Shown here: positions 3,989 through 9,900 of the stretch, piece by piece
Numbering within the stretch: the first letter of the stretch is position 1
Layout: each line of letters starts with the position of its first letter
From: Branchiostoma belcheri
Taxonomy: Eukaryota
Length of the DNA stretch: 64,000 bases
Assembly (NCBI RefSeq): GCF_001625305.1
Contig: NW_017802379.1
Coordinates: forward strand, 4,341,479 to 4,405,478
Direction: 5' to 3'
Position numbers and translations under genes: made by a program
Notes under the pieces: generated by a model
What the model saw: only the letters and a program-made list of their open reading frames with translations
Database searches by the model: none
Told to the model about the DNA's origin: nothing

Positions 3989-6900
3989 CCGAGTCGCCCT
4001 GAAACAAACATGTGGTAAGTATAATGATTTTCTTTCTCCAGAAACAGTTTCCCCTGACATAAAAATCGTCTAGTAGGTACGTATTACATCCATCAAAAAT
4101 GATTAAAAATCATGTCCATTAATAAATTAAATAAACAAATTTAAAGGCACATTGTGATGAAATGATTTACTTAATGAAAACATTTCAGGAAGAAAATTTA
4201 GGTCCTAACATCCAAATCCTCAAATCCTAATATTATCTGAGGTGGGTTCGGTCTTCTATAAATATCCGTGTAGCGCTATGAACGTGGTCATTGTGCCTTC
4301 TGTGACCCCACTTTGAAGGGTTAAGTCTTCTCTTCAAAACAGCCATGTGGGGGAGCGGGTCCTCACAGCAAACTTGGGAGAACTAAATGTACCACTTCAG
4401 AAAGAACATCAGGATGTCTATTTCAGGATTAGTTTCGGAACGATAAAAGTGTTACAAATTTGAGAACATAAGACCTTTTTATTCCACAAATGTCTAAACT
4501 TTCCCCAAAGCCAAAATCAGCCAAGGGAGTCTTTTCGGTCGACTGGGTGCTCGGCAGCAAGTAATCCACTGTGGGTTTGGGAACTGGCTAGGAAGGGTGG
4601 TCATGTGGTATTCCAGCTTACGCAAACATTTAGGGTTTTGATTACACTACTCCATCAAACAATGAAGCGCGTTTGAATCACCTGGTTTCATCAACGTGAA
4701 AACGTGTTCGCAGAAGTCACAAAAGGAGATGAAAACAAAAACGGTTTTAGCAATTTAGCATTTGATGCGGCTTTCGCTAAAACCTCCATCACACCCTCCG
4801 GAGAGGACCACCCTGTTTTGAAGATAAACACCTTGATCGAGAGGGATGAACGCTAATGAACGGTAAAAACCAACCAACAAAGTGTAGCGGCTCAACCATG
4901 ATGAGGACATGACTGTGAATCAACTGCGGTTGGTCTTCAGACAGAACATATTAATGTTACTGTAGATCCGAGGCTTACGTCTACTTATAGTCTTAGAGTG
5001 CACTCAGCAGAGAAGAAGTTTTATAAAGTCAGGACCTGAGAGAGTAGAGGGCACAAGACCATATGCATTGCCGGTGAAGGCAAACTCTACTCTTCTTTTA
5101 GACTTTGGTATATCATAGTTGGAAACTGTGTTATATGATAGCAACTTCAGAAAACACAAGTGCGACGATTCTCGAAAATTCATAACAAGTTTGATATATG
5201 AACGTGCCGAAAAATAACATGATTTCATGTCATAACAAGACTTCCTTGATGACAGGAATATAAGTCCCACACCTCCCTACTGTTTATTATTTTGACCACT
5301 CAGCCTGAAAATTAAGTTTTTGTTCCTTCCCCGTCCTTACACAGGCTTACAAGCCAAGTGGGGTTTTGTGATAACAGCTTGTTCCTAAGACCAGACTGTT
5401 TGTACGGTGACCTGTGGCGAGACAAAACCACCGTGGTCTGTCTCTCCAACCTCTTCCCGCAGGATGACCCCGTGTGACCTCTACAGATCCCATAATCCTC
5501 GGCGGGTCCGAGGCTATATGTAGAGAAAAACAGACTTGCGAAAAAAATCATCGAACAGGAAAGATGTATACATAGCATAGGGCAGATCATTTCTAAAACA
5601 TGGCGAACCCTACAAGATTAATGGTAAATTTAGACACAAAATAGGTTATTGTATCAGTATATGTTCATTGCAGAAAATAGACAAGACCCGATGAAAATTG
5701 AGCATCTGTTGCCAGGATTTGGCCATACTCTTTTTAGGCCTAAAGATATTGAACACCTGTCGCGTCTCTTCTCCCTTTGAAGTCACCTCTACACCTTGGG
5801 GTGTAGGGGGCTCTGGGTAGAGGCTTTCTCCTCCTTACCTTGGCTGCCTGTCTGCTGCGCCCGAACATCAGTAGGGTGGACAAGCACCACTGTCCCTCAC
5901 CCATCCCCTAATCTCTCACATGCTGGCTCCAAGCGCCACACCCCGGTACACCGCTTCAGCAGGCGGGCGAAACCATGTGAGGGGCCACATACTGTGGTTA
6001 CACCTGTGCCTGAGTGTCAGCACAGGTATACAGACCCGACACTCTGCAACCCCACCCTGAGCCAGTCGTCTCGGTCTTTCCCTTGCCACTGGATCCCTCT
6101 CGATGGGGCCAAGATAGTGGACTGAGAATTGTGCACTCTCCTTCCACTTAAAACCCTCTTTGCACATGCTTCTCTCATTGTACTCTTGTACTCTTTACTC
6201 CCCTTTGACTAATGACTACAAGTCCCACGGCGATGGACAAGGAGCGACGGGAGCAGGTGATGAATGCCACTGGGAGCTCCCAGCCCCAAACCCACACGTG
6301 AGGCGGCTCCGGTATTGAAGGTCGCTGACAGGCTGGGACGGAACGTCAGCCTACAGAGGCAGCAGCCGGAGTGACTGGGCAGTCCTGTTTAGGATCCGCA
6401 CTGCCCACCCCAGGATGGGGAAGGGCCTAGAAAAGGTGGCTCAAACATTGCACGTTCCACCCCGACCATGGGCGGGTCGCCGTGCCCGTCATGGCATTCC
6501 ATTTAGCGGCAGAAACACAAAGACAAAACCGACTGACTTAACACTTGCGTGCTGGAATATCCGCACCCTAATGGACACAGAACATTCGCAATGTCCTGAA
6601 AGACGAACTGCCCTTGTGGCGGCAGAACTTTGTAGATACAACATTGACATTGCAGCGCTGGCGGAGACCAGGCTGGCAGACGAAGGCTCTCTAACAGAAG
6701 AGGGCGAGGGGTACACCTTCTTTTGGAAAGGACTACCCAAAACTGACAGAAGACTACACGGAGTTGGCTTCGCAGTCCGGACTGAACTACTGCGTTCTAC
6801 ACCGGCAGATCCGCAGGGAATCAGCGAGCGGCTGATGACCTGGCGACTCCCACTCCGCCACGACCGGTATCTGACACTTATAAGCATATATGCACCCACA

Positions 6901-9900
6901 TTAGTAGCAAGCGATCTGGTCAAAGATGAGTTCTACAACTCCCTAGATGCAGCAATCCGTGCCGTGCCTCCTGAGGATAAGTTGGTCATTATGGGCGACT
7001 TCAACGCACGTGTTGGAACTAGTCAACACCTGTGGAAAGGAGTGTTGGGTGGACATAGCGTGGGCAAATGCAACGACAATGGGCTAAGACTCCTCACTTT
7101 TTGTGCCGAGCACTCACTTGTCATCACAAACTCACTGTTCCAGCAGCGCTCCCTACATAAGACCACCTGGATGCACCCCAGATCCAAGAGGTGGCACCTG
7201 CTGGACTATGTCATAGTACGGCAGAGGGATCGCAGGGATGTTACAATCACACGCGCTATGAGAGGTGCCAATGCGTGGACTGACCACAGAATGGTCCGCT
7301 CCAAAGTCAAGCTCCACACACAGAAACAGCGCCGATGCACCGCAAGGACCGGAAGACTTAATCTCCAAGCACTCAGGGATGAGAAAAAATACATAGAACT
7401 GCAACGGGCACTTGAACAAAGCCTACCCACTATCCCCGATGACACTCCTCCCAACACAGAAGCTCTCACTGAAGCCTGGGAAGGCGTGGCAAGTACTCTT
7501 CTTGCCTCCGCTCGCAGAGTTCTTGGTTCCAGCAAAAAACGAAACAGAGACTGGTTCAATGAGCAGAGACCAGACATTCAAACACTCCTCTCGGAGCAGC
7601 ACAAAGCACACTCAAACGTGCTTAGAAACCCAACTCGAGCTAACCGGGCTAAGCTAACGGAGCTGAGGTCCCATGCCCAACGGGAGATAAGGAAAATGAA
7701 GAACGTCTGGTGGACAAACCTAGCAAAGGAGATGCAAGGGTACGCAGACTGCGGTAACCAACAGGGCTTCTATAGTGCCCTTAAGGCAGCATACGGCCCA
7801 ACACGAGGGTCCCACTTCCCTGTGCGGTCCGCGGATGGAACATCTCTAATCACAGACAAAACTGCCATACTTGCCCGATGGGCAGAGCACTACAAGCAGC
7901 TGCTGAACAGGCACACAGAAGTGGACAACAGCATCATCGAGGACATTCCCGAGCTCCCAACCATGACAGAGATGGATGAGCTCCCAACCTCCAGTGAAGT
8001 CCGCGCGGCAGTGAACTCTCTCAAGAACAACAAAGCCGCGGGACCAGATGGAGTGCCTGGAGAAATCCTGAGAGCTGGTGGTGAGCCAGTCGTCCAGTGT
8101 CTACACTCTCTCATCATCACTGCCTGGAACTCTGGTTGTGTCCCCCAACAATGGAAAGACTCCGATCTTGTGAGCACATATAAGAAGAAGGGAGACAGAG
8201 CAAGTTGCAGCAATAGCAGAGGCATTTCTCTTCTATCATGTGCCGGTAAAGTACTTGCAAGGATACTGCTACTTCGACTTATCAACACAGTCTCCGAAGA
8301 TGTCTTACCTGAAAGCCAGTGCGGTTTTAGAAAAGACCGCAGCACCACGGACATGATTTTTGTAGCCCGACAAATTCAGGAGAAATGCAGGGAACAGCAT
8401 CAAGACCTTTACATGGTCTTCGTCGATCTAACTAAAGCATTCGACACAGTCAATAGACCCCTACTGTGGGAAGTACTTCGGCGCTTTGGCTGCCCCCCCA
8501 AGTACCTAGCTGTCCTGAAGTCACTGCACAACGGAGCTATGGTAAGGGTTCTCGGAGGAGGAGCAAAGTCTGATGCTTTCCCCGTATGCACAGGTGTCCG
8601 GCAAGGTTGTGTGATCGCGCCAGTGATCTTCAATCTGTTTCTTGCGGCCGTAATGCTGGCAGCCAAGAAGGACATAAGGCCAGAGGACTGTGTGCCACTA
8701 ACCTACAGGTTGGACGGCGGCCTGTTCAACCTACGCAGATTCAGGGCGCCGACAAAAATCCAGAAGGGGACAATTCTAGAACTTCAGTACGCAGATGATG
8801 CTGCAGTCGCTGGATGCACCGCCACAGGTCTCCAGAGGAGTCTCACCGTACTGGACAACACATACACACGTGCGGGACTCAGCACCAACACGGGGAAGAC
8901 CGAGGTCATGTGTCAAGGTGGTTCCCTCACTGGTTCAGACACTTTCCAGATAAAGAACAGTGCACTGAACAACGTAAATTCTTTTACTTACCTTGGCTCA
9001 ACCTTGAGTGTCAACTGCGACATAACAGACGAGGTGCAGCGGCGCATAGGTCTTGCATCTGCCTCCTTCGGCAGACTTGCACGAAAAGTCTTTCTGAACA
9101 GAAGCTTGTTAGTCAAGACCAAAGTCGCCGTGTACAGGGCGGTATGCCTCTCCATTCTACTCTACGCGAGTGAGACATGGACCCCATACAGGCACCACAT
9201 CCGCACATTAGAACAGTTCCACATCCGTTGCCTACAGAAGATATTGGGACTCAAGTGGTGGCATAAAGTTCCTCACACAGAGATCCGACGTAGAGCCAAC
9301 ATCGAGCCCCTAGCGGCCATACTTCTGCAGAGGCAACTCAGATGGGTAGGGCATGTGATCCGCATGCCTGAAAACCGGCTACCAAGGCAGATGTTGTACG
9401 GTGAGCTTTCCGCGGGCAAACGCACCGTAGGTGGCCAGCGCAAGAGGTTCAAGGACTGCTTGAAAAGTAACCTGAAGTCCTGTGGCATCGAGCCACAAAG
9501 TCTTGAACGACTAGCAGCTGACAGAAACAGTTGGAGACAGGTATGCTCGACAGCTACCGAATCGTACACAGACTGCTACAACCAGAGGGCGGAGACCAGC
9601 AGAGCAAGAAGACACATGCCGGCTCAGCAACAAGGACAACACATCTGCGAGATATGCGGCCGCGTCTTAGCAGCTAGAATCGGCCTAATCAGCCATCGAA
9701 GAACACATCGAGTGAGAGAGACAGAGAGTCAACAATGAGGGACGTCATCTTCGAAACCGAAGGACTGCCTTAAGCAACACCCATTTCCGGTTAATTGTTA
9801 GCTCCGGGTGTCTTTGATATCGACACCTGTTAATCCTGGCCCATGCAGAATAGAGCTCCTGGAATTTCGCGGACTGGACAAGATATAACGTCGTGGCGCA

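Follow-up and report, generated by a model that had tools for sequence, protein, structure and literature searches.

A compact single-ORF retrotransposon of probable RTE affinity, with an intact-looking reading frame, in the amphioxus Branchiostoma belcheri

A long, uninterrupted reading frame with the hallmarks of a LINE raises two questions about this stretch of amphioxus DNA: to which clade the element belongs, and whether the copy is intact. We refer to the whole 64-kb stretch of B. belcheri DNA that was analysed as the window, and all features described below lie on its forward (+) strand.

Coding capacity of the element

The ORF listing of the window gives one ORF without interruption at 6415..9738, with an ATG start, 1107 aa and the stop codon included, exactly as a preliminary description of the locus had it. 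That description had also named an APE endonuclease, the reverse transcriptase (RT) motifs FVDLTKAFD and YADD, and a C-terminal CCHH finger, and Pfam together with motif alignment locates them all. The APE (exo-endo-phosphatase) endonuclease domain spans aa 47-294 (6553..7296; Pfam PF03372/PF14529), with Exo_endo_phos matching aa 47-272 at E=2.4e-9 and the catalytic motifs WNIR47, ETR84, GDFN194, DYV264 and TDH289 in place. The RT domain lies at aa 590-863 (8182..9003; RVT_1, E=1.6e-34) and contains FVDLTKAFD at aa 669-677 (8419-8445) and YADD at aa 792-795 (8788-8799). L1 ORF2p is the top solved structure for the ORF (E=8e-30), and a PDB search with the endonuclease domain by itself returned nothing informative. 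Pfam detects no RNase H anywhere in the ORF, and ORF1, already reported missing in the preliminary description, is absent both from the window and from 9 related contigs.

Directly ahead of YADD, sequence comparison identifies a family-specific insertion of ~29 aa (8686..8772) that is common to BmRTE-d15 and all relatives and missing from the RTE reference aligned by BLASTP. The RT is followed by a post-RT C-terminal domain of RTE type (9004..9558), which an RTE protein matches colinearly as far as LAADR, and by a C2H2 finger (aa 1078-1098, 9646..9708) with the basic stretch RARRH before it. We recognize the finger by its spacing, CX2CX12HX3H, and by its conservation, as 4/4 Zn ligands are invariant in 17 relatives of 47-61% identity; the Pfam zf-C2H2 match is below threshold (E=0.009, 16.9 bits vs a cutoff of 25.2). 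Most relatives begin 4-6 codons ahead of WN(I/V)RTL, where the window copy has no ATG. Its start is instead an in-frame ATG 46 codons upstream, in good context (A at -3, G at +4), and this is the only ATG that gives a complete endonuclease in the window copy.

Affiliation with RTE or with other LINE clades

RTE elements are defined by a single ORF with APE and RT (PMC2887409, PMC8501958), and their hallmarks include that single ORF together with a 3' UTR that is extremely short and made of simple repeats (PMC2887409). The window copy has a single APE-RT ORF, no ORF1, a 39-nt 3' UTR and a repeat-like tail. The preliminary description had explained the absence of ORF1 as something seen in some CR1/L2 lineages; the absence stands, but the explanation falls away, since having no ORF1 is the norm for RTE and leaves no exception to account for.

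Over the RT core, identity is 30-34% with RTE references, 44% with BmRTE-d15 and 21-29% with CR1/Jockey. In distance-based (NJ only) trees built on 38 published reference RTs, which were typed from an OCR'd supplement and include neither the I-group clades (I, Ingi, Vingi, R1, LOA, Tad1) nor L2 or Rex1, the family joins BmRTE-d15 at 93% bootstrap and the whole RTE clade is recovered at 72%. A second alignment method puts the family within RTE in 149/200 replicates, and once the nearest Bombyx/Heliconius sequences are removed from that alignment, the family and core RTE form an exclusive clade in 178/200 (89%). At no point in 400 bootstrap replicates (0/400) does CR1 or Jockey alone appear as sister to the family. 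A BLASTP alignment with a published RTE protein runs colinearly from aa 481 to aa 1048, through the RT and the post-RT domain (E=4e-57). The CR1/L2 assignment made in the preliminary description thus gives way to RTE, at 72-89% bootstrap, with low CR1/Jockey identity and a colinear post-RT region. As far as sequence comparison can place it, we suggest, the feature is probably a member of the RTE group (RTE/RTEX/Proto2): a compact non-LTR retrotransposon of the APE type with one ORF, present here as a structurally intact copy. A point against this reading is that the RTE protein aligned by BLASTP lacks the C-terminal C2H2 finger. The motifs IGLISH, RIGL and LFNLRR, which represent the finger and the insertion, occur nowhere in the eight supplementary files of PMC2887409, and the published amphioxus RTE BfRTE-a02, considered as a match, proved to be a different family.

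Of the competing explanations, the most probable holds that this is a Vingi-clade element whose grouping with RTE is an artefact of the missing I-group references; we regard it as unlikely. The Vingi clade (Kojima, Kapitonov & Jurka 2011) belongs to the I superfamily as sister to Ingi/L1Tc, has lost RNase H and has a single ORF of ~1000 aa. Vingi is further described as compact with a single 993-aa ORF, as present in amphioxus (Vingi-1_BF), and as one of two clades, with RTE, whose 5' UTRs behave as cis modules. The window ORF, in which Pfam likewise finds RNase H undetectable, does combine APE and RT in one frame of about this size, but the combination is common to RTE and so does not discriminate between the two. 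Bombyx and Heliconius carry Vingi, Proto2 and RTE, so that the nearest reference, BmRTE-d15, might since have been reclassified; even so, an I-group element would be expected to attach near Jockey/CR1, whereas the family falls inside RTE in 178-193/200 replicates and its entire post-RT domain aligns with an RTE protein. The C-terminal finger of L1Tc, of the Ingi clade (CPHCDSTLTGFSGLVSHCRSFH), resembles the family finger, for example CPHCGRPCASQFGLQSHMRTH in relative P0010, although the likeness is mostly generic C2H2 consensus. A search of the protein database with published L1Tc peptides, aimed at an Ingi-clade reference, found no match. Poly(A) is typical of the 3' end of Ingi-type elements, whereas members of this family close with short repeats.

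Ends, copies and integrity of the element

Homology to family copies is demonstrated by DNA similarity over 6033..9777, which takes in the 5' UTR core, the ORF and the 3' UTR. Similarity to four relatives (L004/L005/L126/L127) begins at 6033-6062, and similarity to the amphioxus copies L001/L002 ends at 9777, giving an element of ~3.75 kb, or ~4.05 kb if the GC-rich leader from ~5762 is included. The interval 5762..6032 is a possible subfamily-specific 5' end, suggested by a rise in GC from ~0.44 to 0.57-0.65 at ~5760 and by the length of the relatives' 5' UTRs, which at ~640-690 nt would put the start of the window element near 5725-5775; the interval has no sequence similarity to the relatives. 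The leader GC of 0.55-0.65 bears out the preliminary observation of an ATG after a GC-rich leader. An alternative 5' end at 6217, taken from the inverted copy L002, was dropped because more distant relatives align up to 6033.

Two hairpins in the 5' UTR are conserved, with compensatory changes in both. The first, H1 (6062..6092), found by RNAalifold, pairs CCAGT with ACTGG around a 21-nt conserved loop; 97.6% of cells are paired, and in L130 the stem is swapped for GATGG/CCATC. The second, H2 (6116..6148), is identified by covariation and reads AGTGGA..GAGA / ATTGTGCAC / TCTC..TCCACT, its inner stem covarying as GAGA/TCTC, GAGG/CCTC, GTAAG/CTTAC and GTGG/CCAC. A 22-codon upstream ORF, read from the sequence, occupies 6233..6301, and an ATG at the equal position in the B. 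belcheri paralogue L002 opens a 16-codon uORF. Rfam, run at gathering and at permissive thresholds on three related contigs as well as on the window and its 5' UTR, returned nothing, and so no HDV-like, twister, hammerhead or L2-type 3' element.

The 3' UTR is short, with 39 nt between the stop codon (9738) and the element end (9777), and in several relatives the stop codon sits within a conserved GTGACGTCATC motif. It holds a hairpin, GTC-AT-CTTCG / AAAC / CGAAG-GAC (9744..9765). All 8 bp are paired (100%) in a set of 7 distinct sequences, compensatory changes occur at two of the pairs, and 40%-identical relatives have the hairpin too. The case for this hairpin rests on covariation, since its fold by thermodynamics is not significant (z = -1.45). 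A metagenome pattern scan for the hairpin returned mostly GC-rich bacterial coding sequence, with relatives at 2/120 loci. By comparison with relatives, the 3' terminus TGCCTTAAGCAA (9766..9777) carries a single TAAGCAA(G) tail unit and lacks poly(A). The tails of relatives are (TAAGCAAG)n-like, (TAAGC)n, (TAAG)n, (TGAAG)n or (TAC)n, and their flanks diverge beyond the tails; relative P0014 has the (TAAG)n tail, and the RTE element Perere-3 repeats this same unit in its (GTAA)n tail.

The family is under purifying selection, with dN/dS of 0.08-0.13 against the B. lanceolatum copy. The window copy keeps 226/235 (96%) of the family-invariant residues and, in agreement with the intactness claimed for it beforehand, has no frameshift and no indels relative to 17 relatives. 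Given these two observations and the family dN/dS of ~0.1, the copy looks functional, and it still has its catalytic residues and its cis elements at both the 5' and the 3' end. The recent insertion and possibly active family suggested in the preliminary description are more conjectural: the window contains no second copy, and the exact protein is not on record in the protein database, where, among 5.8 billion entries, a B. lanceolatum protein comes closest at 78% identity and the best B. belcheri matches reach 71%. Among sister copies, L001 and L003 are 5'-truncated and L002 is 5'-inverted with a 12-nt overlap, as TPRT (target-primed reverse transcription) and twin priming would lead one to expect. 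Neither exact k-mers nor local alignment reveals a target-site duplication above chance adjoining the canonical 3' end. The best candidate, a weak one, pairs GATATTGAACACCTGT (5745-5760) with GATATCGACACCTGT (9816-9830), a score reached by 49/1000 shuffles (p ~0.05), and its 3' arm lies 38 nt past the family 3' terminus rather than abutting the canonical end.

The lack of a second copy in the window, of a near-identical protein in the database, of a clean target-site duplication and of the canonical start codon would also suit an insertion that is old and dead and has kept an open ORF by chance, or a host gene domesticated from a LINE. We consider this very unlikely. A 3.3-kb ORF would not survive neutral decay, as a few percent divergence would by our own estimate bring several stops, and a dead copy is also hard to square with 96% of invariant residues kept and no indels. 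The retained 5' and 3' cis elements are a further point against this explanation, and domestication finds no support in orthologous conservation, the flanks having nothing in common with the B. lanceolatum or B. belcheri copies. Least probable of all, and hardly credible to us, is the original proposal of a CR1/L2-group LINE without ORF1, like UnaL2 or ZfL2-2: a single ORF, the YADD motif, and a 3' stem-loop with short tandem repeats in place of poly(A), like the (TGTAA)n of UnaL2, all fit it, but stem-loop and repeat tail are common to RTE and other stringent-type LINEs and so do not discriminate, and the proposal must contend with an RT core only distantly similar to CR1/Jockey and never with CR1 or Jockey alone as its sister (references without L2 and Rex1), a C-terminal domain that aligns with RTE, no match to the Rfam L2-type 3' element or to any other family, and no trace, in the window or the 9 related contigs, of the upstream ORF1 that is usual, if not universal, in that group.

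Elsewhere in the window, a GPHR exon of 308 aa matches the B. belcheri protein at 100% identity. Its long intronless ORF was considered as a LINE-made retrocopy, an idea rejected since the B. belcheri gene has this ORF annotated as its terminal exon.

Proposed mechanism, significance and known systems

If this RTE-like element behaves as its family suggests, its RNA would be translated into one polyprotein, the APE domain of which would nick target DNA. The RT would then copy its own RNA by TPRT, having recognized it through the conserved 3' hairpin and the short-repeat tail ('stringent' recognition). The basic stretch and C2H2 finger at the C-terminus may bind nucleic acid in place of an ORF1 chaperone, and the 5' UTR, conserved and structured, probably has a cis-acting part in the processing of the RNA, in its translation or in RNP formation. 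It is likewise the family that suggests that this one copy is competent.

Intact LINE copies are routine in amphioxus genomes, so a single one is of little weight by itself. Labelling the element RTE-like rather than CR1/L2 changes which SINEs and non-autonomous partners are to be expected and points to a horizontal-transfer-prone group, and a clean, full-looking ~4-kb element with defined 5' and 3' RNA structures is a practical candidate for retrotransposition assays. Published work reports that SINEs reuse the 5' UTRs of RTE and Vingi as modules; the 5' UTR found here, strongly conserved and structured, agrees with this observation and gives a concrete RNA to test. A bolder reading, which we find doubtful, is that the window copy represents an undescribed RTE sub-lineage widespread in amphioxus, teleosts, shrimp and marine plankton metagenomes, defined by a C-terminal C2H2 finger that takes over the chaperone role of ORF1, the 29-aa insertion beside the RT active site and a conserved two-hairpin 5'-UTR module. 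The module, which matched no Rfam family, could on that reading belong to a new class of elements for LINE 5' processing or translation, such as a new self-cleaving ribozyme.

Several known systems invite comparison. Some LINEs have a reported twister-variant or HDV-like 5' ribozyme, whereas neither is detectable by Rfam in the window element. UnaL2/ZfL2, 'stringent-type' elements of the L2 clade, share a conserved 3' stem-loop and a short-repeat tail, which their RT recognizes, and UnaL2/ZfL2-2 a single ORF (PMC4176376), but the RT lineage differs and the Rfam L2-type 3' element finds no match here. The C2 domain of L1Tc (Ingi clade, Trypanosoma cruzi), another ORF1-less LINE, similarly joins a C-terminal basic stretch to a C2H2 finger, and in L1Tc this region has nucleic-acid chaperone activity; unlike the window element, L1Tc possesses two such fingers together with an RNase H domain, and the likeness may reflect homology or convergence. 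Vingi, as described, is alike in being compact, in its single ~1000-aa ORF with APE and RT and no RNase H, in its presence in amphioxus and in its modular 5' UTR, whereas the window RT groups with RTE against every clade in a reference set without Vingi. The RTE clade (C. elegans RTE-1, Bov-B, Schistosoma Perere-3/SR3, lepidopteran BmRTE/HmRTE) is alike in its single ~1000-aa ORF with APE and RT and no ORF1, its compact 3.2-4.3 kb, its very short 3' UTR with simple repeats at the end, its insertions adjoining microsatellites, and its homologous RT and post-RT domain. To the aligned RTE protein the window element adds the C-terminal basic stretch and C2H2 finger, and to core RTE the ~29-aa insertion before YADD, which it shares with its nearest reference, BmRTE-d15 (Tay et al. 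2010, PMC2887409).

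Integrity and relatives of the ORF

The LINE in the window is real, intact and ordinary. The preliminary description had its ORF exactly: the ORF listing gives an ATG-initiated frame of 1107 aa at 6415..9738 on the + strand. An endonuclease, RT motifs and a CCHH finger had been read within this one ORF, behind a GC-rich leader, and Pfam and motif inspection recover all three, while GC content bears out the leader. Pfam places an APE (exo/endonuclease/phosphatase) domain at aa 47-272 and RVT_1 at aa 590-863, both on the + strand. The APE motifs are WNIR, ETR, GDFN, DYV and TDH, and the RT motifs are FVDLTKAFD (aa 669-677) and YADD (aa 792-795). 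Among solved structures, human L1 ORF2p is the top match, with R2 proteins next. The C-terminal finger has the canonical CX2CX12HX3H spacing and follows a basic stretch; its match to Pfam zf-C2H2 is below threshold, and its four ligands are invariant in 17 relatives (47-61% identity). Two distant relatives' loci, L024 and L078 (40% identity in the C-terminal domain), end in (TAC)n and retain the element's 3' hairpin with no C2H2 finger, so the finger has been gained or lost in the course of the wider lineage's history. The window ORF has no ATG at the canonical start, 4-6 codons before WN(I/V)RTL, and opens instead at an in-frame ATG that lies 46 codons upstream and has a good context; one part of the resulting extension, F.GRN..K..L.LA.WN, is conserved in some relatives, such as the protein P0031.

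The ORF had been described as uninterrupted, and a frameshift check agrees, finding no internal indel against the 17 relatives. Against the same set it keeps 226 of 235 family-invariant residues. Of the nine substitutions, eight are conservative; the other falls on a conserved Cys of the finger that is not a ligand. Comparison with the B. lanceolatum copy gives a dN/dS of 0.08-0.13, with dS saturated, so the family's evolution has been that of a functional element. By our own estimate, neutral decay beyond ~1-2% would close a 3.3-kb ORF, and the window copy is therefore either young or under selection. Domestication is made less likely by its unrelated flanks.

The nearest proteins are amphioxus gene models, 78% identical in B. 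lanceolatum and 71% in B. belcheri; the exact window protein has no record in the protein database. They are followed by hundreds of 1050-1140-aa proteins encoded on ~4-kb metagenome or run-assembly contigs, and by proteins from shrimp and teleosts with 47-61% identity to the window ORF. No second copy of the element was found within the window at the DNA or protein level, and the activity that the preliminary description thought possible for the family is so far unproven. The flanks of the amphioxus copies L001-L003 are unrelated to those of the window, so these copies are paralogous insertions rather than orthologues. L001 and L003 are 5'-truncated, and in the B. belcheri paralogue L002 (3522-4305) the 5' part runs in the opposite orientation, and its junction shows a 12-nt overlap. 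Such 5' truncations and 5' inversions are what target-primed reverse transcription and twin priming classically leave behind. Twin priming is usually discussed for L1, and L002 carries its signature in an RTE-like family. Elsewhere, the relatives' protein P0014 (1141 aa, 52% identical to the window ORF) is encoded by an identical ORF on four contigs (L128-L131) from TARA Oceans and other marine metagenomes, with differing flanks and a (TAAG)n tail, a pattern that suggests a young, multi-copy family carried by a marine animal in the plankton samples.

Element ends and untranslated regions

A 5' end at 6217, where the inverted segment of L002 ends, was considered and dropped as too far downstream, because the more distant relatives L004, L005, L126 and L127 align from 6033-6062 to the ATG. 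Before position 6033 the sequence differs between subfamilies. Since relatives' 5' UTRs are 640-690 nt long and GC content rises stepwise at ~5760, the element probably starts near 5762. No target-site duplication was found adjoining the canonical 3' end; the best candidate pairs 5745-5760 with 9816-9830 (p ~0.05) and lies 38 nt beyond the family terminus.

The aligned 5' UTR (6033-6414) shares 65-74% nucleotide identity, though the proteins of the same elements are only 52-61% identical. It contains long invariant runs (CCAGTCGTCTCGG, CCCTTGCCACTGG and GCCAAG.TAGTGGACTG) with no codon periodicity in them, and two + strand hairpins with compensatory changes, H1 (6062-6092) and H2 (6116-6148). 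Across H1 and H2, 91% of cells are paired, versus at most 56% in slid controls, and five pairs are changed on both sides. The 5' UTR has no match in Rfam. Possibly it acts in cis as an RNA module, for instance a ribozyme, an IRES or a packaging signal. A cis-acting role is plausible by analogy, since R2 carries a 5' HDV-like ribozyme and the RTE element Perere-3 a twister-variant ribozyme (PMC8501958), and published work describes the reuse of RTE and Vingi 5' UTRs as SINE bodies. The same region holds a uORF of 22 codons (6233-6301), and in L002 an ATG at the equivalent position opens a uORF of 16 codons. A possible extra helix pairs GAGTGTC (6012-6018) with GACACTC (6038-6044); in L004 and L005 the partners are GGGTGTC and GACACCC, a compensatory change, with a spacing of ~85 nt vs 20 in the window.

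At the 3' end, similarity of L001 and L002 to the element stops at 9777 (..CCTTAAGCAA), only 39 nt from the stop codon, which in several relatives lies within a conserved GTGACGTCATC motif. Nine copies share a 3' hairpin, then a few short repeat units (TAAGCAAG-like, TAAGC, TAAG, TGAAG or TAC), then divergent flanks. The hairpin (9744-9765) is 100% paired across 7 distinct sequences, with compensatory changes at two pairs and three pair types at one position; its fold energy is by itself unremarkable. The 3' tails of L004, L126, L127 and L128 lead directly into (AT)n, (TG)n, (CA)n or (GT)n microsatellites, junctions that fit the association reported between RTE elements and microsatellite families.

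Other features of the window

The window also holds an uninterrupted 308-aa exon of GPHR (GPR89, Golgi pH regulator) at 43433-44359, in a gene spanning ~41.7-44.4 kb. The RefSeq Golgi pH regulator-like protein of B. belcheri matches this ORF at 100% identity, which marks the window as B. belcheri DNA; its B. floridae counterpart matches at 96%. Judged from the other B. belcheri assembly, GCA_025402995.1, its neighbours are major vault protein (minus strand) and an L18p-like gene. The window is 86-96% identical to that assembly with many indels, so it represents a different haplotype or assembly. Inverted arms at 17121-17837 and 18949-19558 (~720 bp, 97-99% complementary) flank 1.1 kb and hold 18/54-bp tandem repeats; the structure resembles that of a foldback-like or long-TIR transposon, ~2.4 kb in all. 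A (CATA)n microsatellite of 19.5 copies lies at 16498-16575.

Clade affinity

Judged on its sequence, the LINE is RTE-like. A set of 38 reference RT cores, covering RTE, CR1, Jockey, L1/Tx1, R2, R4 and CRE, without I, Ingi, Vingi, L2 or Rex1, was transcribed from the alignment that Tay et al. 2010 provide as Additional file 7 (PMC2887409) and aligned anew together with the window ORF and four relatives. In the RT core, the window ORF shares 44% identity with BmRTE-d15, 30-34% with other RTE elements, 21-29% with CR1/Jockey and 23-25% with L1/Tx1. The tree joins the family to BmRTE-d15 with 93% bootstrap, within an RTE clade at 72%. Under another alignment algorithm, with the nearest Bombyx/Heliconius sequences removed, 178 of 200 replicates unite the family with core RTE in a clade of their own; the family's sister is RTE-only in 193 of 200, and CR1 or Jockey alone in none. 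A bona fide RTE protein from the same source (PMC2887409) is colinear with aa 481-1048 of the window ORF (30% identity, E=4e-57), through the whole post-RT domain to LAADR. Specific to the family, relative to that protein, are the C-terminal basic stretch and C2H2 tail and a ~29-aa insertion just before YADD, the latter common to BmRTE-d15.

The CR1/L2 label of the preliminary description is unsupported, because the RT trees and identities, with CR1 and Jockey among the references, the colinearity with an RTE protein and the architecture all fit RTE. Vingi membership is a live alternative, given the span of the tree references and because published Vingi elements are compact, single-ORF and RNase H-less and occur in amphioxus. 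Equally live is the finer placement within RTE, RTEX or Proto2, all of which are reported beside Vingi in Lepidoptera. The architecture of the element matches the published RTE hallmarks, namely one ORF, a 3' UTR that is extremely short and ends in repeats, and an association with microsatellites (PMC2887409, PMC8501958).
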